In this document: positions 4,428 to 25,886 of the stretch, in pieces | Layout of the letters: every line of letters begins with the position of its first letter | How positions within the stretch are numbered: position 1 is the first letter of the stretch | Virus genome (UHGV): UHGV-0194685 | Source of the DNA: a virus | Length of the DNA stretch: 42,355 nucleotides | Reading direction: 5' to 3' (one strand) | Position numbers and translations under genes: made by a program | Notes under the pieces: model-generated | Database searches by the model: none | Told to the model about the DNA's origin: nothing | The model's input: the letters and a program-made list of their open reading frames with translations, nothing else

Positions 4428-5877
4428 AGGTGTCCTCATTCAATCGCCGCCAGGAAGCGGCAAGTCAGTAGTGATTGCGGAAATAGTTAGACTGGCAACG
4501 AATAAAGGTGGAAAGGTACTGTTTTTGGCACACAGAAGGGAACTACTCGATAACATCGTTGAAACACTCAACGATAACGATGTGGACTTATCGAAAGTGA
4601 TTGTGTTGTCAGCAGTGATGGCAAAGAACCGTTTATCTACTCTCCCACCGCTCTCTTTGATTGTCACGGATGAAGGCCATCACGGAAAAGCCAAAACGTA
4701 TATGGATATTTACGGACATTTTAAAGACGTGCCACGGTTAGGTTTTACAGCCACACCATATCGATTGAATGGCGAAGGGTTTAAAGACATCTATGATGAA
4801 ATGGTCGAAGGCCCAACTATTCAGTGGTTGATTGATCATCACAATTTAGCGCCTTATCGATGGTTTTCTATACCGCTGATTGATCGAGCGAAAGTCGATT
4901 TTAAAAATATGACGAGAGAGGCGGAATCATCCGCAAAGCTCTTTGAGTCAGACGCAACGATTCAAGGCGATATCATCGGAAACTACAAAAAATACGCTAA
5001 TGGGAAACAAGCGATTGTTTATGCCCCAACAATTGAGGTTAGTAAATTAATCGTGAAGTGGTTCAATCAAGAAGGTATTTATGCGGTACACGCTGACGGA
5101 AAGACTCCTACGAAAGAACGTGATCAAATCATGGCTGATTTTAAAGCAAAGAAAATCACGATTTTATCCAATGTTGATTTGATTTCAGAGGGGTTCAATG
5201 TACCTGATGTAGGAGTGATCATTCTATGCCGACCAACGCAATCAATCGTTCTTCATCTACAGCAGTCTATGCGTGGTATGAGGTATCGTCCTGATAAAAC
5301 ATCTATCATTTTGGACCATGTGGGTAACGGAGCTAATTTAGGATTACCGGCCGATGGGTTTGAATGGTCCATTGAAGGCCGAAAGAAAAAGTCGTCAAGT
5401 AGCAGCGGACCGCCGAAAATGATTTGTACAACTTGTGGACAACAATTTCTTTTAAAAAGTCTTTTGAAAATCAACGATAAACCACATTGCCCGTTTTGCC
5501 TTCAAGAAATTGAAATGAAGGAAAAAGAAACATCTGTCACTTTTGACGAAACGGTGGAAATGGTGGAGCTGAATGCTGAAAAAGCAAAAATTGCACGATT
5601 TTCACGCAAGAAATTTTCAACGAAACAATCACTAGAAATCAATTATGCAATCGCAAAAGCGAAAGTAGAAATGGTCGGAAAAGGAAATCCGCTATTTAAA
5701 ATGTTCGGTTCTTTGACCGCTTATCGAAAGAAAGAATATTCATTAGATGTATTAGAGGAATTTTCTCTACTTTGTAACGTATCGATGGAAAAAGTTTTAA
5801 AGGCCTACGACTGGGCTTATAAAAAATCTTTGGAAAAACCAGAAATGTCCGAATGGGCGAAAAACACATTTTACTAA
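4357..5877 (+). CDS. SF2 DEAD/DEAH-box helicase with a C-terminal zinc finger
   Basis: Motifs LRPYQ, QSPPGSGKS and VTDEGHH are present, with CTTCGQQF...HCPFC at the C-terminus. The ATG at 4357 carries a GGTGGTG RBS, whereas the track start at 4342 is a TTG. The gene overlaps the upstream gene by ~70 nt. Confidence 0.8.
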   Translation: MFQLRPYQNNLVIEARNHLATGNKGVLIQSPPGSGKSVVIAEIVRLATNKGGKVLFLAHRRELLDNIVETLNDNDVDLSKVIVLSAVMAKNRLSTLPPLSLIVTDEGHHGKAKTYMDIYGHFKDVPRLGFTATPYRLNGEGFKDIYDEMVEGPTIQWLIDHHNLAPYRWFSIPLIDRAKVDFKNMTREAESSAKLFESDATIQGDIIGNYKKYANGKQAIVYAPTIEVSKLIVKWFNQEGIYAVHADGKTPTKERDQIMADFKAKKITILSNVDLISEGFNVPDVGVIILCRPTQSIVLHLQQSMRGMRYRPDKTSIILDHVGNGANLGLPADGFEWSIEGRKKKSSSSSGPPKMICTTCGQQFLLKSLLKINDKPHCPFCLQEIEMKEKETSVTFDETVEMVELNAEKAKIARFSRKKFSTKQSLEINYAIAKAKVEMVGKGNPLFKMFGSLTAYRKKEYSLDVLEEFSLLCNVSMEKVLKAYDWAYKKSLEKPEMSEWAKNTFY

Positions 5878-5893
5878 GAAAGAGGTATAAAAA

Positions 5894-6406
5894 ATGGGAT
5901 TTAAAGTAGATTACAACGAAGCACAAGAATTTGGGAACGTAGCAGATGGAGATTATGAAGTAGTGATTTTCAATGTCACTGAAGAAGCAACGAAAAGCGG
6001 AGCGGAAAATATTAATTTTGATATGGTAATCCGTAATGATATTGATCAAAAGTATAAGAATAGCCACCTTTTCCATAAAGTATGGAAAGCGAAAGAAACT
6101 GGTAAATACAATCGAGGGGCTGTAATGGCTCTAGCGAAAAACTTTGGTTTACCTGATGGAAAAAACTATGATTCATTTGATAAATTTTTAGAAGATTTTG
6201 CTCTTCGGACAGCTAAAGTGCGTGTAAAAAATGAACAATCTGAATATAACGGGAAAACGTACGACAATACGAATATTAAGAAATTTGGCCCTAGCGAATA
6301 TCCAGATCTGCAACACCAATGGAAGAAAAAGGAATCCTCACAAACAGATTTTGGGCGCGACAACAGTTCATCAATTAATGTCACAGACGATGATCTGCCA
6401 TTCTAA
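5894..6406 (+). CDS. hypothetical replication-module protein (DUF669-like position)
   Basis: ORF-track ORF. The family assignment is by synteny and size only. Confidence 0.45.
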   Translation: MGFKVDYNEAQEFGNVADGDYEVVIFNVTEEATKSGAENINFDMVIRNDIDQKYKNSHLFHKVWKAKETGKYNRGAVMALAKNFGLPDGKNYDSFDKFLEDFALRTAKVRVKNEQSEYNGKTYDNTNIKKFGPSEYPDLQHQWKKKESSQTDFGRDNSSSINVTDDDLPF

Positions 6407-8745
6407 TGAGTAATTACGAACGCATTCCCTCAGAACTCCGTGAATTAAATCAGTGGGGGATTTATAAGCGTGAGTGGGATGAGGATAGACAGAAATGGAA
6501 GAAAAAACCGCACAATCCTTTTAACGGAAAACTCGGTAGCAGTACAAACGAGGGCACATGGTCTGATTTTCAGACCGCCCTTGATGCTATCAATAAATTT
6601 AAAGCAGATGGATTGGCATTCTATTTCAAACCGCCATACATTGGGATTGATTTAGATGATATTCCTGACGATTTAGAACGGTATCTACAAGGTGATATCG
6701 AAAACAACTTAGTTTATGTGTTTATGAATTCAACTAAAACCTATTCGGAAATATCAATGTCAGGTAAGGGGATCCATATTATCGGAAAGGCTAAAATCCC
6801 TGGAGACCGTAGAAGAAAAAAGAATGTAGAAATGTACACAGATGGTCGATTTTTCGCTATCACTGGAAACTTTTTTGGTAATAACAACGAAGTGAATGAA
6901 GTTCCAAAAACTCAAATGGACTTTCTTTATAAGCGTTATTTAGAGAATGATAATGTGATTACTCACGATTTTTCAAAACCAAATTGGGATGACGGGAATG
7001 ATTTGTCAGTAGATGAAATTGTTCAAACTGCACTTAATTCATCTACAGGACGTCGATTCAAAATGTTTATGGATGGCGGTTGGGAAAAAGTCTATTCTAG
7101 CCAATCAGAGGCAGATTTAGCTTTTGCCAACGATTTAGCCTTCTGGACCGCTGGTGACTTTCAAAAGATGGACGAAATATTCCGAATGTCTGCAATGATG
7201 CGAGAAAAGTATGATCAGAAACGCGGAAAAACGACGTATGGAATCGGGATATTAAATAAAGCAATCTCAGAAAATACGAACCACTACACTGGTAAAAAAA
7301 CAGCAGATGATTACTTTTTATCGATACCAGGCATTACTACAGAAGAAAAAGAAAAGCCTTCAAGATTTTATTCTTATGACGATACTGGGAATTCTGAACG
7401 ATATCTTGATTTGTTTGGAACGTTAACCAAATACAGCTATGTCAATAAGTGTTGGTACTTCTACAACGGGAAGAATTGGGAACAAGACAATATCGGGGCG
7501 ATCCGTAAATGGGTAGATCAATCGATTGACGTTCTTAAAAATGAACCAGTTTCTGTTCCTAAAGATGCTACAGAAGATGAGAAAAAAGCGTACATGGAAG
7601 CGAAAGCAAAACACGTTAAACGATCTCGCAACAATGCTGGTAAAGAGGCAATGACGAGGGAGTTGAAACACAATGTAGCAGCATTGCCTGAAGAATTCGA
7701 TAGTGACGATATGCTTTTTAACACCCAAAACGGATATCTTGATTTATCAAATGGCATTTTAAATGATCATGATATTTCTAAAATGTTTACTCGGATTTCT
7801 AACGCTGAGTACACCGACAAAGATGAGTGTTCTCGTTGGGAATTGTTTCTAAATCAAATATTTGATGGGAATACAGAGTTAATCCGCTACATTCAAAAAG
7901 CAGTCGGCTATTCAATGACTGCATCAGTTAAAGAGCAAGTGATGTTTATTCTATTTGGAAATGGCCGAAATGGTAAATCTGTCTTTCTGGATATTATCGC
8001 AGAGATTATGGGAAGCTACGCAATGGGAATGCAAGCGTCGAGTTTAATGGTAAAACAGGGCAGCAGTAGCGGACACAATGAAGATATTGCCCGTTTAGAT
8101 GGTGCTCGCCTAGTCACCAGTAGTGAACCAAACGAAGGCGTCCGGTTAGATGAGGGATTGATCAAACAGCTAACTGGTGGCGACAAAGTATCCGCGAGCT
8201 TCAAAGGTGGTCATATGTTTGATTACAAACCGAAGTATAAAATTTGGCTGGCCACTAATCACAAACCAATTATTCGAGGAAATGATGACGGTATCTGGCG
8301 GCGGTTACCATTGATCCCTTTTACTGTACAGATACCGCTTGATAAAGTTGATAAAACTTTGAAAGAAAAATTAATGCGTGAATTACCCGGCATCATGAAT
8401 TGGGCCGTCGAGGGCTGTTTAGCGTGGCAGAGAGAGGGACTTAATCCTCCGGCAGACATTCAGAAAGCTACGATGGAATATCGTCAAGAAATGGACGTTA
8501 TTGGAAGCTTCATTGAACAATGTTGCGAAACAGGACCCGGATACGCTATCGGGGCAACGGAATTGTTCAAAGCCTATGATAAGTGGGCAAAAGAAATGAA
8601 CGAACACGGATTTACTCAAACGCAGTTTGGTAAAAAGATTTCGGATAAATATGAAAAAAGAAAAACAAAAATTGGAATGGTCTATAAAGGAGTAAGTATT
8701 AAGAAACAATTTAGAGAATTTGGCGTTAATGTTCCAGGACTCTAA
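6406..8745 (+). CDS. bifunctional primase-polymerase (Prim-Pol) fused to a P4/D5-type SF3 primase-helicase
   Basis: The N-terminus has Prim-Pol-like motifs. The C-terminus has the Walker A motif ILFGNGRNGKSVF, typical of the P4-family primase C-terminal domain. The gene is 779 aa and the origin lies immediately downstream. Confidence 0.85.
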   Translation: MSNYERIPSELRELNQWGIYKREWDEDRQKWKKKPHNPFNGKLGSSTNEGTWSDFQTALDAINKFKADGLAFYFKPPYIGIDLDDIPDDLERYLQGDIENNLVYVFMNSTKTYSEISMSGKGIHIIGKAKIPGDRRRKKNVEMYTDGRFFAITGNFFGNNNEVNEVPKTQMDFLYKRYLENDNVITHDFSKPNWDDGNDLSVDEIVQTALNSSTGRRFKMFMDGGWEKVYSSQSEADLAFANDLAFWTAGDFQKMDEIFRMSAMMREKYDQKRGKTTYGIGILNKAISENTNHYTGKKTADDYFLSIPGITTEEKEKPSRFYSYDDTGNSERYLDLFGTLTKYSYVNKCWYFYNGKNWEQDNIGAIRKWVDQSIDVLKNEPVSVPKDATEDEKKAYMEAKAKHVKRSRNNAGKEAMTRELKHNVAALPEEFDSDDMLFNTQNGYLDLSNGILNDHDISKMFTRISNAEYTDKDECSRWELFLNQIFDGNTELIRYIQKAVGYSMTASVKEQVMFILFGNGRNGKSVFLDIIAEIMGSYAMGMQASSLMVKQGSSSGHNEDIARLDGARLVTSSEPNEGVRLDEGLIKQLTGGDKVSASFKGGHMFDYKPKYKIWLATNHKPIIRGNDDGIWRRLPLIPFTVQIPLDKVDKTLKEKLMRELPGIMNWAVEGCLAWQREGLNPPADIQKATMEYRQEMDVIGSFIEQCCETGPGYAIGATELFKAYDKWAKEMNEHGFTQTQFGKKISDKYEKRKTKIGMVYKGVSIKKQFREFGVNVPGL

Positions 8746-21621: not shown

Positions 21622-22737
21622 ATGACTATGAAACTATCAAACGAATTCAAAACAATTCGTGACAACTTCTTAGCTGCTGTTAATAATAACGAGCCAGCTG
21701 AAAAACAAAATGAACTATACGGTGCAATGCTCGATGAATTGCTGAACGAAGCAAAAAAACAAGCGCGTGCTGAGGCAGAAGGATTAATTGCTGAAAATCC
21801 GGCAGATGCGAAACTATCTGCTCGTGAGCGTAAATTTTTTAATGCTATCAGCACGGACGTCGGTTATAAAGAAGAAAAATTGTTGCCGCAAGAAACCATT
21901 GATCGAATCTTTGAGAACTTAACTACTGCCCATCCACTATTAGCTGAAATCGGTTTAGTAAACGCAGGGCTACGATTGAAATTCTTGAAATCTGAAACAA
22001 GTGGTGTTGCTGTATGGGGAAAAATTTTCGGCGAGATCAAAGGCCAGTTAGATGCAGCGTTCAGCGAAGAAGAAGCAATTCAAAGCAAATTGACGGCGTT
22101 TGTAGTTGTTCCTAAGGATTTGAAAGACTTCGGACCAGCTTGGATTGAATCATTTGTGGCTACTCAAATTGATGAAGCTTTTGCAGTGGCTTTAGAGGCT
22201 GCTTTTTTATCAGGAGATGGAAATGACAAGCCGATTGGTTTAAATCGTCAAGTTCAAGAAGGTGTAGCCATTACTGGTGGTGTTTATCCAGAAAAAACTT
22301 CAATGGGCGATTTAACATTTGCTGATTCAGCAACGACTGTTAAAGAACTAACGAATGTTTACAAACATCATTCAACTGACGAAAAAGGTCACGCAGTTGC
22401 TGTAGATGGAAAAGTTGTCATGGTAGTTAATACTAGTGATGCTTGGGATGTCAAACGTCAATATACTTCATTAAATGCGCAAGGAGTATATGTAACTGCG
22501 TTACCTTACAATTTGAAAATTGTTGAATCATTAGCGCAAGCAACTGAAAAAGTTTTAACGTTCGTAAACGGCCGATACGATGCATATATTGGTGGGGGCA
22601 TTACTTTACGTAAATACGATCAAACATTGGCAATCGAAGATTTAGATCTATACACTGCTAAGCAATTCGCATATGGAAAAGCTAAAGACGATAAGGCTGC
22701 TGCAGTTTGGGGATTAAAAGTATCCGAGGGAAAATAG
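21622..22737 (+). CDS. major capsid protein (HK97-like)
   Basis: 371 aa directly after the protease, with an AGGAGG RBS. The gene ends at the slippery heptamer G_GGA_AAA followed by TAG. Confidence 0.85.
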   Translation: MTMKLSNEFKTIRDNFLAAVNNNEPAEKQNELYGAMLDELLNEAKKQARAEAEGLIAENPADAKLSARERKFFNAISTDVGYKEEKLLPQETIDRIFENLTTAHPLLAEIGLVNAGLRLKFLKSETSGVAVWGKIFGEIKGQLDAAFSEEEAIQSKLTAFVVVPKDLKDFGPAWIESFVATQIDEAFAVALEAAFLSGDGNDKPIGLNRQVQEGVAITGGVYPEKTSMGDLTFADSATTVKELTNVYKHHSTDEKGHAVAVDGKVVMVVNTSDAWDVKRQYTSLNAQGVYVTALPYNLKIVESLAQATEKVLTFVNGRYDAYIGGGITLRKYDQTLAIEDLDLYTAKQFAYGKAKDDKAAAVWGLKVSEGK

Positions 22738-22799
22738 AGTCCCCCGCAGTTATTAATGTTGAACCGACAAGCGACGGAGCAACAATTGCACTGCAATAG
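22728..22799 (+). other. putative -1 programmed frameshift site (G_GGA_AAA at 22728-22734) plus a 21-codon -1-frame extension of the capsid protein
   Basis: The canonical X_XXY_YYZ heptamer abuts the zero-frame stop. The -1 frame reads IESPAVINVEPTSDGATIALQ* and has no internal start codon. The peptide is conserved with the extension after the major tail gene. Confidence 0.4.
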
Positions 22800-22814
22800 A
22801 AAGGGGCGTTTCTA

Positions 22815-23117
22815 TTGGATGAGAAATTGCTAAAAGATTTCAAATCGCGGATGCGAATCTTTCATGCTGCTGACGACGACAACTTAGAAAATATTTTGGA
22901 AAGTTCAAAAGTAGCTGTTAAGCGATGGTGTGGGACTGACAATGTTTCAAATCCTGAAATTCGAGAACTCGTGATTGAACGCAGCCGATATGTCTACAAT
23001 GATTCGTTAGAATTTTTCAATGATAACTTTCAATCGGAATTGATGGCTGTCTCTTTAGCGAATTATGAAGAGGGAGTTGATGGAAAAGATGAAGTACCAG
23101 AAACCCAAAGTCAATAA
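22815..23117 (+). CDS. putative head-tail connector / DNA-packaging protein
   Basis: 100 aa; assigned by position. The start is a TTG. Confidence 0.5.
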   Translation: MDEKLLKDFKSRMRIFHAADDDNLENILESSKVAVKRWCGTDNVSNPEIRELVIERSRYVYNDSLEFFNDNFQSELMAVSLANYEEGVDGKDEVPETQSQ

Positions 23118-23454
23118 CGGAGCTATGAGAACACCTGTTGAATTTTTTCAATATCGACCGCATAAAGGCCCTGAGCCAGGCGAGCAAGAAAAGCAAACCA
23201 TTTTTAATTGTTTTGCTGAGATCTATAACCCCTCAATGAAAGATTTAGAAATTTTAAACTCTAAAACGACTAAACAAGCAGTAACTCTCACGATTAGAGA
23301 TCCGCAAACTGACTACATTGTTTCAAACAAGCATTATGTGGAGGTTATGGATCGGAGATATTCAGGCATTCGTTGGAACATCGTTGACGTTCGAAATGAT
23401 TTCACTGACAACCGATTCATCACGATTTTATTAGCGGTGTATGGCGATGAATAA
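23065..23454 (+). CDS. putative head closure / head-tail adaptor protein
   Basis: Position and size. The start is ambiguous (ATGs at 23065, 23080 and 23092). Confidence 0.5.
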   Translation: MKRELMEKMKYQKPKVNNGAMRTPVEFFQYRPHKGPEPGEQEKQTIFNCFAEIYNPSMKDLEILNSKTTKQAVTLTIRDPQTDYIVSNKHYVEVMDRRYSGIRWNIVDVRNDFTDNRFITILLAVYGDE

Positions 23455-23851
23455 TGTTGATTTTAAAGGCGTAAATGAGACCTTACGAGCGATTGAAAAC
23501 CGTCTAGGTGACAAGAAAGTCAGGTCAATAGCTCGAAAAGCTATCAATTCTGGTGCTGAAAAAGTCGAGAAACGACTACAATCTGACATGCTCGTTTTCA
23601 AAGATACTGGCTACACAATTGATGAAGTTGTCCGTAAAAACGCAACGTACAGAAACTACAAAGCTGAGGCTGAGATAGGATGGAACGGACCCCATCAGCG
23701 GTACAGGCTTATTCATTTGAACGAATGGGGATATACGAGAAACGGTCGTCAAATAAAACCACGTGGGTTTGGCGTCATCACAAAATCGTTAAAGAATTCT
23801 GAACCCGTGTACTTCGAGACAGTGGCATCGGAGGTAAAGAGAAACCTATGA
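23441..23851 (+). CDS. putative neck protein (HK97 gp10-like position)
   Basis: Position and size (136 aa). Confidence 0.5.
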   Translation: MAMNNVDFKGVNETLRAIENRLGDKKVRSIARKAINSGAEKVEKRLQSDMLVFKDTGYTIDEVVRKNATYRNYKAEAEIGWNGPHQRYRLIHLNEWGYTRNGRQIKPRGFGVITKSLKNSEPVYFETVASEVKRNL

Positions 23852-24258
23852 AAGATATGCTTGGTAATATCTATGAATTGCTGTGTAACAATGAATACAT
23901 CAAAAACATGACGTTCAATGATGAAACAGAAGAATATCGTATCAAGTATTATGAACAGCCCGAAACGACGGATAAGACTGGGGCGTTCATCACAATTAGA
24001 CCTGTGGACGTCCCAAACGAAGCTTATCACGGAAGCGATAAAGAACTTTCTATTGAACATCTAATACAAATTGATGTTGAGTCTAAGTACAGAGCAACAT
24101 GCAAACAAATGCAATATGAAATTAAAAAAGAGATGAAGAAGCTTGGCTTTGGGCAAGTAAATGGTCAAGGTTTAGACGAATACTTCTCGGAGACTAGACG
24201 TTATGTAGACGCTCGACGATATGACGGGAATACACGAATTTACGATACACAATATTAA
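23848..24258 (+). CDS. putative tail completion protein
   Basis: Position and size (136 aa). Confidence 0.5.
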   Translation: MKDMLGNIYELLCNNEYIKNMTFNDETEEYRIKYYEQPETTDKTGAFITIRPVDVPNEAYHGSDKELSIEHLIQIDVESKYRATCKQMQYEIKKEMKKLGFGQVNGQGLDEYFSETRRYVDARRYDGNTRIYDTQY

Positions 24259-24277
24259 AACAGAATAACAGGAATTA

Positions 24278-24303
24278 AGACACGAAAACTCGTGTCTTTT
24301 TTT
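24278..24303 (+). terminator. Rho-independent terminator
   Basis: AGACACGA-aaac-TCGTGTCT stem followed by TTTTTTT. Confidence 0.6.
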
Positions 24304-24327
24304 GTTGTCAAAAAAAATTGAAAGAGA

Positions 24328-24921
24328 GTGATTATATTGACACTTGTAGGATTTAAAAAAATGACAATCGGAATTTTTGATAAGGACGGTAAAATTCCAA
24401 CAGCTAATCAATTTGTTATTGAAGGTAAACAGGACAAAGGTGCAACAGTATCCGCAGAAATTAGCGGTTTATCAAAAGAATCTACGAAAGTTTATGGATC
24501 AGATATTGCATACTACATTTCACAAAAAGGGACAGGCGATGTTTCAGCGACATTTGGATTGTTAGATTTACCAGAAGATTTGAACGATAAAATTTTAGGA
24601 TATAAAACTAATGAAAATAAAATTAGCTTCTTAGGCGAAGATACTGAACCTCCGTATTGCGCAGTGTTGATGGAGTCTTCTGATCTAAGTGGTGAAACAG
24701 CTATGTTAACTATTTTTAAAGGTAAATTCAGTCGAGAATCAATTAATTTGAATACAACTACTAACGAAGCATTCGAACCCGAAGCAGAAGAGTATGTATT
24801 CTCTGCTATCGCTAATGATGCAGAAGGCGATGCAAAAGGACAATCCGTTGCTAAATATGTCGGTAAGGAAGAAGCAGCTATCACAGCATTGCGTACTATG
24901 ACTTTTCCAGCGGGGGAGTAG
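24328..24921 (+). CDS. major tail protein
   Basis: 197 aa between the neck genes and the chaperone. The start is uncertain (GTG at 24328, TTG at 24337 or ATG at 24361). The gene ends ...GCG GGG GAG TAG. Confidence 0.7.
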   Translation: MIILTLVGFKKMTIGIFDKDGKIPTANQFVIEGKQDKGATVSAEISGLSKESTKVYGSDIAYYISQKGTGDVSATFGLLDLPEDLNDKILGYKTNENKISFLGEDTEPPYCAVLMESSDLSGETAMLTIFKGKFSRESINLNTTTNEAFEPEAEEYVFSAIANDAEGDAKGQSVAKYVGKEEAAITALRTMTFPAGE

Positions 24922-24983
24922 TTAGCCCTGTCGTTGGAAAAGTTACCCCGACGACAACAGGGGCAACAATCGCATTAAGTTAG
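24912..24983 (+). other. putative -1 frameshift (G-run GGGGGAG next to the stop) plus a 23-codon -1-frame extension of the major tail protein
   Basis: The -1 frame reads GGVVSPVVGKVTPTTTGATIALS*. The peptide matches the capsid extension over 12 of 21 positions, with different codon families used for the shared Ser and Leu. A bulged hairpin CCCTGTCGT...ACGACAACAGGG starts 7 nt after the G-run. Confidence 0.35.
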
Positions 24984-24987
24984 GAGA

Positions 24988-25335
24988 ATGAGTGTGGTAG
25001 ATACATTTAGAATTTATAAAAAAGATGGAACAAAAGTAGTGGAGGGCACAAGCCCTCTTTCTATCACTGGTATTGCAGCGAATACACAAGTTGCAAAGGG
25101 TGATTATCAAGCAACTCGGTTGGTTAAAGGTGTAGAATCGGCGAAAGTTGATATTCCAGCATTTAAGACACTGGCTGAGCAAGAACCGGAAACACCTAGC
25201 TTTGATCCTGAAGGAGATGTAAAGCCAACAAATGCGAATACCGTTGAAGAAATAAAAGCATGGTTGACAGCACAGGGCATTGATTACACCGGAAAGACGC
25301 TTAAATCAGAATTACTTGCATTAGTACCAGCATAG
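24988..25335 (+). CDS. tail-associated protein with an Ig-like N-terminus and a helix-hairpin-helix-like C-terminus
   Basis: 115 aa with an AGGAGA RBS. The Ig-like/HeH call is by eye only. Confidence 0.45.
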   Translation: MSVVDTFRIYKKDGTKVVEGTSPLSITGIAANTQVAKGDYQATRLVKGVESAKVDIPAFKTLAEQEPETPSFDPEGDVKPTNANTVEEIKAWLTAQGIDYTGKTLKSELLALVPA

Positions 25336-25341
25336 TTTTTT

Positions 25342-25370
25342 AGAGGACTGTAGTAGTCCTCTTTTTTATT
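25342..25370 (+). terminator. Rho-independent terminator
   Basis: AGAGGACT-gtagt-AGTCCTCT stem followed by TTTTTTAT. Confidence 0.7.
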
Positions 25371-25395: not shown

Positions 25396-25707
25396 ATGGC
25401 ACAAGTTCGAATTGAATTAAAAAATAAAAAAGGCAAAAAAGAAGTCTTTGAGAAATTAGAAACAACCGGGAAAGACTATCGTTTAGCTTTGCAAACAATT
25501 AAAAAATTAAATGCAGAAAAAATCATGGTGTGGGATCAGTTAGATATTTATTTAGCTTTTGCAGTGGAAATTTTCAAAGCAGACAAATTGACCTCTGATC
25601 AAATTTTAGATGGGTTGCCTTCTGAAACAACTCGCGAAACATTAGACGGTCTATTAGGACAGGTAATGGGCGTTGAGGATGATCCTGATCCAGATGCAAA
25701 AAAGTAA
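25396..25707 (+). CDS. tail assembly chaperone (G)
   Basis: 103 aa immediately upstream of the tape measure. The gene ends at A_AAA_AAG followed by TAA. Confidence 0.7.
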   Translation: MAQVRIELKNKKGKKEVFEKLETTGKDYRLALQTIKKLNAEKIMVWDQLDIYLAFAVEIFKADKLTSDQILDGLPSETTRETLDGLLGQVMGVEDDPDPDAKK

Positions 25708-25886
25708 CCCCAGAAGAAGCGGAAGAAATGTATATGGAACTGTGTAGAGAATTAACGAAACAGGGATGGTCTCTCTCTGATATTGAAAATAATTCTTTTG
25801 ACACGTTAATTGAAATTGCTTGTGTAAGTCCGAAAAAAGAAAAATCAAAAGAAGTCGACCTAAAAGATTTCGTCAAATCCATTTAG
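25396..25886 (+). CDS. tail assembly chaperone G-T fusion via a -1 frameshift at A_AAA_AAG (25698-25704)
   Basis: The -1 frame continues for 58 codons (VTPEEAEEMYMELCRELTKQGW...KDFVKSI*). It ends 15 nt before the tape measure start. This is the canonical siphovirus G/G-T arrangement. Confidence 0.6.

Follow-up and report, generated by a model that had tools for sequence, protein, structure and literature searches.

Capsid and tail-tube proteins of an Enterococcus prophage carry a predicted frameshift-encoded tag that probably forms part of a split FN3 domain

UHGV virus genome UHGV-0194685, the 42,355-nucleotide stretch of DNA analysed here and called the window throughout, carries on its + strand a major capsid protein gene and a tail tube (major tail) protein gene that both stop beside a putative ribosomal slip site and are both followed, in the -1 frame, by a short peptide of the same family, the tag. 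Behind the tail gene lies a small gene, the partner, whose product begins with what appears to be an incomplete FN3 domain. We suggest that tag and partner are probably two parts of one split domain, through which a payload could be attached to head and tail alike.

The capsid gene (21622..22737, +; 0 frame) encodes 371 amino acids and matches the HK97-type family PF05065 at 46.8 bits (E 3e-12, above the Pfam threshold). By sequence, the window is an Enterococcus prophage: its capsid protein is 99% identical to those of E. viikkiensis and E. hermanniensis prophages and 67-70% identical to capsid proteins of Staphylococcus phages, while a DNA search of phage records returned nothing near-identical to it. 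The capsid reading frame closes with GAG GGA AAA TAG, which places a slippery heptamer of the form X_XXY_YYZ, G_GGA_AAA (22728-22734), in the 0 frame and directly ahead of the stop codon (22735-37; whole site 22728..22737, +). A ribosome slipping back one base here would go on to read IESPAVINVEPTSDGATIALQ* (22734..22799, +; the asterisk marks a stop codon), a stretch that the tag profile recovers at E 9e-12, and the predicted long form would have 392 amino acids with the junction ...VSEGK-IESPAV... The next gene starts 16 nt after the tag closes, and an RNA hairpin is predicted 3' of the shift site (22746..22794, +; -15.3 kcal/mol, z -2.7).

The tail tube gene (24328..24921, +), for which homologues were found and which matches PF04630 (Phage_TTP_1) at 56.1 bits (E 4e-15, above threshold), likely starts at TTG 24337. 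It ends in GCG GGG GAG TAG, and its -1 frame gives GGVVSPVVGKVTPTTTGATIALS* up to 24983. The candidate shift site (24912..24921, +) is a non-canonical G_GGG_GAG with TAG directly behind it and a run of five G at 24912-16; the tag itself, GVVSPVVGKVTPTTTGATIALS* (24915..24983, +), is matched by the profile at E 1e-12 and has a coding signature in its frame. The long form is predicted to contain ...TFPAG-GVVSPVV..., with FPAGG-VVSPVV and FPAGE-VVSPVV as variants, and the junction peptides of the long capsid and tail forms would read SEGKIESPAVINVEPTSDGATIALQ and FPAGGVVSPVVGK (or FPAGEVVSPVVGK), respectively. Here too a hairpin is predicted downstream (24921..24976, +; -21.1 kcal/mol, z -3.1 against shuffles), with an outer stem GCCCU...GGGGC and an inner stem GUCGUUGG/CCGACGAC.

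An earlier note on this DNA had placed the capsid tag behind a canonical G_GGA_AAA immediately before the stop, and the tail tag, running to 24983, behind a G-run beside the stop with a hairpin downstream. Re-reading the sequence gives the same capsid arrangement, the location of the tail tag is confirmed, and the tail hairpin is indeed predicted. Two more general statements hold for one gene each. That both genes end at a -1 slippery site is right for the capsid gene, with its canonical heptamer, but the tail site offers no such heptamer; that neither -1 frame has an internal start is right for the tail, but the capsid frame contains a TTG at 22707, upstream of the stop, with just a weak purine run (AAGG) before it and no evident Shine-Dalgarno sequence.

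Both shifted frames close after 21-22 codons, and at neither gene does the shifted frame hold a whole domain of ~80-90 residues. Open shifted frames are common in the window, where 34% of post-stop out-of-frame reads run for at least 21 codons. The likeness of the two tags is another matter: the reported match at 12 of 21 positions is confirmed and constitutes an extreme outlier, the best other pair among 1035 comparable peptide pairs within the window reaching 7. As had also been claimed, the shared residues are written with different codons (Ser as TCC versus AGC, Leu as CTG versus TTA), which is visible in the sequence itself. When a profile of related tags (consensus SPxVxxVxPTxxGATIAL, length 21-22 residues) is run against the six-frame translation of the window, it returns exactly two matches (E 1e-12 and 9e-12), with the next best at E 5.

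We sampled 34 genome loci via the capsid protein and 80 viral contigs via the downstream gene, and counted 81 loci, the window included, for paired tags. Capsid and tail tags occur together in 69 of the 81: at 65 loci a -1 tag stands behind both the tail gene and a gene of at least 200 codons ~2 kb upstream, and 4 further loci combine an in-frame tail tag with a -1 capsid tag. Loci outside the paired set are mostly truncated contigs, or have the partner behind the capsid gene with a second tag farther downstream. The -1 slip sites of the family (G_GGA_AAA, G_GGA_AAG, A_AAA_AAA, C_CCA_AAA, G_GGG_GAG, A_AAA and A_AAG) always lie at the stop codon or one codon ahead of it. A +1 route leads to the tag in Efquatrovirus SANTOR1 (CCC_TAG) and in the Panton-Valentine leukocidin (PVL) phage phiSLT (CCC_AGC_TAA), and no shift is needed in the phiEf11 tail protein, which ends ...ESVTPTFDGASTELS*, in loci L078 and L104, or in the L112 capsid. 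Whatever the route, the carrier protein always ends with the tag.

Its pattern of variation is that of a coding sequence. Across 33 distinct tail tags, pairwise differences at the three codon positions of the tag frame are 0.30/0.26/0.54, the third being the most variable; capsid and tail tags score as more similar when they come from one genome (0.64) than when they come from different genomes (0.55; permutation p about 1e-4); and length and sequence are stable over dozens of diverged phages, whose hosts are Enterococcus, Staphylococcus, Kurthia and Brochothrix, with precise ends and slip sites retained. As far as sequence comparison can tell, the tag is a translated, conserved peptide. The dual 3' frameshift that the earlier note had proposed for capsid and tail genes thus gains comparative support from the paired tags at 69 of 81 loci, the in-frame versions and the third-position variation, and relatives do keep an open -1 frame behind both genes, at 65 of 81 loci. 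With regard to the tail site, 33 distinct relatives keep CGGGGGAGTAR, CGGGGAAGTAR or CGGGAAAGTAR there, and other relatives have a canonical G_GGA_AAG at the same position, so that the window's site appears to act like a shift site, though non-canonical. Virions of phiEf11 show two head-protein bands, of 38 and 41 kDa, from one gene, for which a 21-residue -1 extension was put forward in a study that analysed only six bands (PMC5221750). We infer frameshifting in the window from sequence, with these bands as the one indirect hint at the protein level.

Selection on the peptide, as the note had it, is supported by third-position variation and in-frame versions, with the qualification that a constraint on the RNA coexists with it. 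The conserved Gly of the tag is encoded by GGG in 28 of 33 tail tags, whereas GGG accounts for 13% of Gly codons in the structural genes of the window, and GGGGC is able to pair with GCCCY in the tail-tag region; the bias fits a GCCCY/RGGGC stem laid over the coding constraint. In 19 relatives, 67% of the cells of the tail hairpin are paired, as opposed to 31-48% when the structure is slid, with covariation that is weak and confounded by coding constraint. RNAalifold did not recover the hairpin from the 19 tail-tag regions, its sole output being a 3-pair stem involving the slip site. No + strand terminator pattern was found at either tag, and no Rfam family matched.

The partner gene (24994..25335, +) encodes 113 residues made up of the incomplete FN3 module, a linker and a probable payload domain. 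It most likely starts at GTG 24994 (MVDTFRIYKK...), with ATG 24988 as the alternative, that is, 5-11 nt past the tag, and its ribosome-binding site, AGGAG at 24982-86, overlaps the TAG of the tail tag (TAGGAG). The module (24994..25173, +; strands C, C', E, F and G) is recovered by its profile at E 9e-33. The candidate payload domain (25240..25326, +) is probably HeH (helix-extension-helix): it scores 15.5 bits (E 0.015) against PF12949, below the gathering cut-off of 28.9, the AlphaFold2 (AF2) model places helices at residues 86-95 and 106-110, and the homologues P0011, P0015 and P0017 carry PF12949. All partner homologues begin M-x-[DE]-T-[FL]-x-[IV]-Y, of the type M-x-[DE]-T-F-x-I-Y-K, the module forming the very N-terminus of the protein in these phages. 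Behind a conserved module of ~60 residues, the database homologues carry HeH, Big_2, two Big_2 or He_PIG.

Tag and module travel together. A profile scan of the window finds exactly two tags and one module, and every tagged locus except one from Pediococcus (L026) has a module-first gene, directly behind either the tail gene or the capsid gene; the latter holds for SANTOR1, Kurthia, L111 and L116, where the tail gene is tagged too. In the tagless relatives P954, L008-L016, L029-31, PSA, A118 and 80alpha, by contrast, no module was found and the tail gene is directly followed by the chaperone gene. Note that 80alpha was examined since the last 24 residues of its tail protein are unresolved in cryo-electron microscopy; it, too, is module-free. 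A tblastn search recovers the module from 386 phage records, most of them of Staphylococcus or Enterococcus phages. In the public records we examined, the module protein goes by the name 'major tail protein' and no frameshift is annotated, as in SANTOR1 (L120, 3601-3822) and phiSLT (L121, 4001-4456), where the shifted extensions and tags are unannotated; the label is probably a propagated misannotation. In two viral contigs, L112 and L117 (~5105-6480), a capsid-sized gene closes with an in-frame tag (in L112, 478 amino acids ending ...TPTGDGATIELS*), and two different module-first genes stand in tandem, which may offer two payloads for one tag.

What does the module look like? The AF2 model of its 60 residues (partner predicted local distance difference test, pLDDT, 87.7) is an FN3-type sandwich without strands A and B. 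No strand is assigned to the stretch expected to form E, whose sheet in FN3 (A-B-E) is here without A and B. The best structural match is BppA of Lactococcus phage Tuc2009, where a 25-residue C-terminal extension of BppU forms a beta-hairpin that completes the equivalent BppA domain, the composite resembling a titin FN3 domain (PDB 5E7T; Legrand et al. 2016, PMC4742702). BppU ends PPTNLIVSDVTSTSAKISWENGG, the C-terminal part of BppA reads KYRVYLDG...LSFDLENLKAGTSYNVQVSQINGNVESDKSESVAFKTTLPK (in a shorter reading YRVYLDG...ESDKSESVAFKTTLPK*), and the window module runs parallel to BppA as FRIYKKDG...SPLSITGIAANTQ...YQATRLVKGVESAKVDIPAFKTL.

Composites of tag and module align with FN3 sequence across the point at which the two are separated. 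The FN3 sequence of SPP1 gp17.1* aligns to the Staphylococcus tag and module across the junction (41% over 34 residues, E 1e-6), the Tuc2009 composite is 33% identical to the Staphylococcus composite over 87 residues (E 2e-5), and hhalign joins the Enterococcus tag+module profile to a profile of SPP1 FN3, Tuc2009 and Staphylococcus composites with 99.6% probability over 78 colinear columns. Since the composites are colinear with intact FN3, the domain appears to be cut in the B-C loop. These sequence comparisons suggest that the tag supplies strands A-B of a split FN3 domain and the product of the next gene the rest. No Lys, Asn or Asp is invariant in the tags, so that binding between tag and module would be non-covalent. 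Staphylococcus phage Stau2 (L124, NC_030933; 3818-5213) strings tag to module over three adjoining genes: ORF93 has an in-frame tag at its end (...PKNVTVTAKETTADITAE*), ORF94 consists of module, Big_2 and tag, and ORF95 of a module alone. Each of these gene boundaries falls in the FN3 B-C loop, and ~30 database proteins of 170-176 amino acids have the same module-Big_2-tag layout.

Several observations weigh against, or lend no support to, a split FN3 domain fed by frameshifting. Taken by itself, the tag shows a weak resemblance to strands A-B of FN3 (hhalign P 0.0055, probability 6.6%, in the correct register), and Pfam calls no FN3 on concatenations of tag and module, giving sub-threshold Ig-like matches (Big_3_5 and Big_6, E ~0.02) to the Staphylococcus version only. 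AF2 did not dock the tag in a natural Staphylococcus myophage chain of module, Big_2 and tag (P0052, pLDDT 93), where the intervening Big_2 may bar docking in cis; the tag of P0052 was left without strands (pLDDT 76) and the E strand of the module was still unpaired. The window's tail site, G_GGG_GAG, departs from X_XXY_YYZ in such a way that perfect re-pairing, on G_GGG, is open to the P-site tRNA-Gly only. The phiEf11 study detected no mass spectrometry peptide of the head-protein extension (PMC5221750). Two loci only, L048 and L058, carry a tail tag and no capsid tag, and Pediococcus L026 has paired tags and a collagen-like reading frame in place of the module. To this may be added that sequence searches of the PDB returned no close solved homologue, the A1 profile matching Big_2 only and a module-only profile matching FN3 at E ~1.

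The three exceptional loci have some features of their own. L048 (2519-3655) and L058 (2530-3666) are viral contigs with another capsid allele, of 378 amino acids, which ends ...DPTPEG* and is tagless, while tail tag and partner are retained; this is a mosaic exchange that left a tail-only version of the system. In the Pediococcus stilesii prophage L026, nearly identical -1 tags follow the capsid gene (~6060-6125, behind G_GGA_AAA_TAA; GKITAPTVGTAKVGAAKLTE) and the tail gene (8240-8300, behind G_GGA_AAC_TAA; GKLTSPTVGTAKVGATKLTE), and the gene behind the tail gene (8311-8613) encodes a collagen-like repeat protein.

Keeping these points in mind, we put at about 0.72 the probability that the locus encodes a docking system built on a split FN3 domain and supplied with tagged capsid and tail-tube subunits by programmed frameshifting. 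Such a system would work as follows. At the last sense codons (G_GGA_AAA_TAG in the capsid gene, G_GGG_GAG_TAG in the tail gene), a minority of ribosomes would move back by one base, paused probably by the adjacent stop codon with help from the downstream hairpin, and would append the 21-22 residue SPxVxxVxPTxxGATIAL tail. The appended residues would form a beta-hairpin equal to FN3 strands A and B, shown on the outer surface, whereas the first ~60 residues of the partner would supply the remaining five strands (C-C'-E-F-G) of a domain cut in the B-C loop. By closing over the hairpin of tagged capsid and tail subunits, the module would tether the probable HeH domain non-covalently to head and tail, with frameshift efficiency setting the number of decorated subunits. 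The shift, the tag as an A-B hairpin and the module rest on comparative analysis and structure prediction; the docking step is carried over from the BppU-BppA crystal structure, and we infer that the partner would be present in virions. If so, head and tail could both be fitted with the same decoration protein.

We also consider it probable, on a wider reading, that many Firmicute phages, among them Enterococcus prophages, Efquatrovirus, Staphylococcus Triavirus including phiSLT, and Herelleviridae, use a natural, non-covalent tag-and-catcher system of this kind. In that system a ~20-residue A-B hairpin, carried by the capsid, the tail tube or other proteins and often added through a -1 or +1 frameshift that sets the dose, would recruit any protein that begins with the module, and the Stau2 proteins would be chained head to tail by the same means.

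Could the tag have a role without the partner, as a short hairpin that touches neighbouring subunits or the host surface while the adjacent gene is unrelated? The tail-only loci L048 and L058 would fit, and tail tube proteins are known to bear short C-terminal arms, for instance the C-arm of 80alpha gp53 (PMC8718954). Yet tag and module co-occur almost perfectly, tagless relatives are without the module, tag plus module is colinear with intact FN3, and the module is homologous to a domain that crystallographically needs such a hairpin, all of which makes a partner-free tag unlikely. Alternatively, the partner might bind the tags in order to help capsid and tail subunits assemble, as a chaperone or assembly factor, and be absent from the finished virion. 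Its gene lies just upstream of the tail assembly chaperone genes, and the partner has not been seen in virion proteomics, where the phiEf11 study covered only six bands (PMC5221750). Against this, the module bears payloads of the surface-display type (Big_2, He_PIG, HeH) that are fused directly to capsid or tail proteins elsewhere, and the structural precedent, BppA, is a virion baseplate component; we regard an assembly factor as quite unlikely. A split FN3 domain agrees better with the payload domains and the BppA precedent than either of these ideas does.

The remaining explanations fare worse. A second recoding event, a read-through or a hop, might join tail tag and partner into one SPP1-like tail protein with a whole FN3 and leave the capsid tag as a by-product. 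The two are in frame in phiEf11, where the partner ATG follows the tail stop after 15 nt, and at one of two Stau2 junctions, but the frames differ in the window and the second Stau2 junction is out of frame. Moreover, the partner always has its own ribosome-binding site, start and conserved Met-x-Asp N-terminus, it follows the capsid gene in SANTOR1, Kurthia, L111 and L116 even as the tail gene is also tagged, and there is no fused protein among the database matches. We judge this scenario very unlikely. Nor do we give much credence to untranslated RNA elements, whether terminators or stability or regulatory hairpins behind two highly expressed genes: both stretches do fold better than shuffles (z -2.7 and -3.1) and one codon is strongly biased to GGG, but variation in the tag frame concentrates at third positions, in-frame versions exist, the two window copies share residues through different codons, covariation is weak, and neither a + strand terminator pattern nor an Rfam match was seen at the tags. 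Equally improbable is the idea that the tags are decaying, functionless remnants of once-complete Ig or FN3 extensions. Complete domains do occupy the same place in L008, A118 and SPP1, but length and sequence are conserved over dozens of diverged phages with precise ends and slip sites retained, and capsid and tail tags co-evolve within genomes.

Turning to the surroundings, terminator-like hairpins with a T-run lie upstream of the tail gene (24277..24298, +) and just behind the partner gene (25342..25362, +). That they bracket the two genes suggests that tail gene and partner form their own strongly expressed unit within the late operon. Farther downstream the window contains a third -1 site (25698-25707, in the gene region 25396-25886), where the tail assembly chaperone reads GCA AAA AAG TAA with A_AAA_AAG beside the stop; its -1 frame runs KKVTPEEAEEMYMELCRELTKQGW... 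to 25886, which is the conserved chaperone frameshift of the G/GT type. All three shift sites in the window abut a stop codon.

Much of the groundwork for a split FN3 system was already known, namely 3' recoding of capsid and tail genes, the proposed 21-residue extension in phiEf11 and the completion of BppA by BppU. Full-text literature searches turned up no account of one adaptor shared by capsid and tail, of its split-FN3 identity, of how it relates to the neighbouring gene or of its distribution among phages of Enterococcus and Staphylococcus. If true, the split-FN3 reading would account for a feature that recurs, unannotated, in many sequenced phages and would reveal a general route to exchangeable surface domains, in which a frameshift-dosed adaptor sits on the two most abundant virion proteins and the payload is plugged in. 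It would bring together three things known separately: the recoding of capsid and tail genes at their 3' ends, the decoration of virions with Ig-like domains, and BppU-BppA hairpin complementation. It would also provide a natural, genetically compact display handle for engineering therapeutic phages of Enterococcus and Staphylococcus, and a clean system in which to ask why decoration stays substoichiometric.

How does this arrangement compare with known systems? The capsid extension of T7 and T3 is surface-exposed. It arises, as is proposed here, from a -1 shift at the end of the capsid gene (10A/10B in T7) that yields a minor, C-terminally extended subunit (PMC5009743); no partner protein or split domain is known to take part in either phage. 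Recoding at the 3' ends of capsid or tail genes is known from T7, A2, PSA, A118 and SPP1, and dual cps/tsh 3' frameshifting from the Listeria phages A118, A500 and PSA (PMC5009743). The parallel with Listeria phages that the note had drawn is borne out, since A118 and PSA add HeH or Big_2 at sites of this kind: A118 adds HeH via -1 at G_GGA_AAC and Big_2 via +1 at CCC_TGA, and PSA adds HeH via +1. The dual frameshifting of Listeria phages was reportedly described by Zimmer in 2003 and Dorscht in 2009. The likeness thus extends to recoding of capsid and tail at their 3' ends through the same kinds of site (G_GGA_AAC_TAA, CCC_TGA), but in Listeria phages the payload is itself the extension and differs between capsid and tail, whereas here one short adaptor would serve and the payload is separate. 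L008 likewise has HeH on the capsid and Big_2 on the tail, and HeH is fused directly to the capsid by frameshift in L008, L011, L016, L029, A118 and PSA. Judging from these sequences, adaptor-free relatives fuse the payload directly at the same sites, and an adaptor would let one gene serve both structures.

Some annotated genes and protein ends among these phages may be read in the same light. Genes called 'HeH/LEM domain-containing protein' begin at the capsid stop in Tuc2009 (L119, 4184-4384) and A118 (L123, 6082-6240); the A118 gene is the -1 extension of Cps, and orf40 of Tuc2009 appears to be arranged alike. The tagless Staphylococcus phage P954 (L001; 5446-5646, 7376-8017) has in-frame acidic ends on capsid (...ALEDTEETL*) and tail (...VTEDTETL*), which we rejected as versions of the tag, the motif being different and the module absent. 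The Tsh-L extension of PSA, PETPLELPLENESGIGDDSEETTQD*, is also acidic, and the ends of P954 and Tsh-L may be another kind of shared C-terminal signal.

Gp17.1* of Bacillus phage SPP1 resembles the window in that a 3' shift at the tail-tube stop (+1, CCC_TAA) adds FN3 sequence; it differs in keeping a whole FN3 in one chain and on the tail only, whereas here the domain would be split in the B-C loop and the capsid is tagged as well. Whole Ig-like and FN3 domains added by 3' frameshifts, as in SPP1 and the Tsh of A118, reportedly make up a class set out by Fraser et al. in 2006. In SPP1 the ratio of short to long tail protein is about 3:1, and infection does not require the FN3 domain (PMC8718954). 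Closer at hand, the head protein ORF10 of Enterococcus phage phiEf11 has a homologous tag, KKIEAPKVESVIPTTDGASIVLS*, in the -1 frame behind A_AAA_AAA_TAG, on a capsid of a different family (its portal is SPP1-like). The phiEf11 paper makes no mention of the in-frame motif on the tail protein ORF15 or of a link to ORF16, and offers no function for the extension (Stevens et al. 2016, PMC5221750).

The nearest structural parallel remains the BppU/BppA baseplate pair of Tuc2009. There, the hairpin is encoded in frame and the incomplete domain lies at the C-terminus of BppA (domain 2); here, the hairpin would be added by frameshift to capsid and tail-tube proteins, and the incomplete domain lies at the N-terminus of a small payload protein. 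The engineered SpyTag/SpyCatcher pair works on a related principle, a short peptide supplying the missing strand or strands of an Ig-like domain and being locked in place by an isopeptide bond. SpyTag/SpyCatcher is covalent and engineered, whereas binding between tag and module in these phages would be non-covalent.

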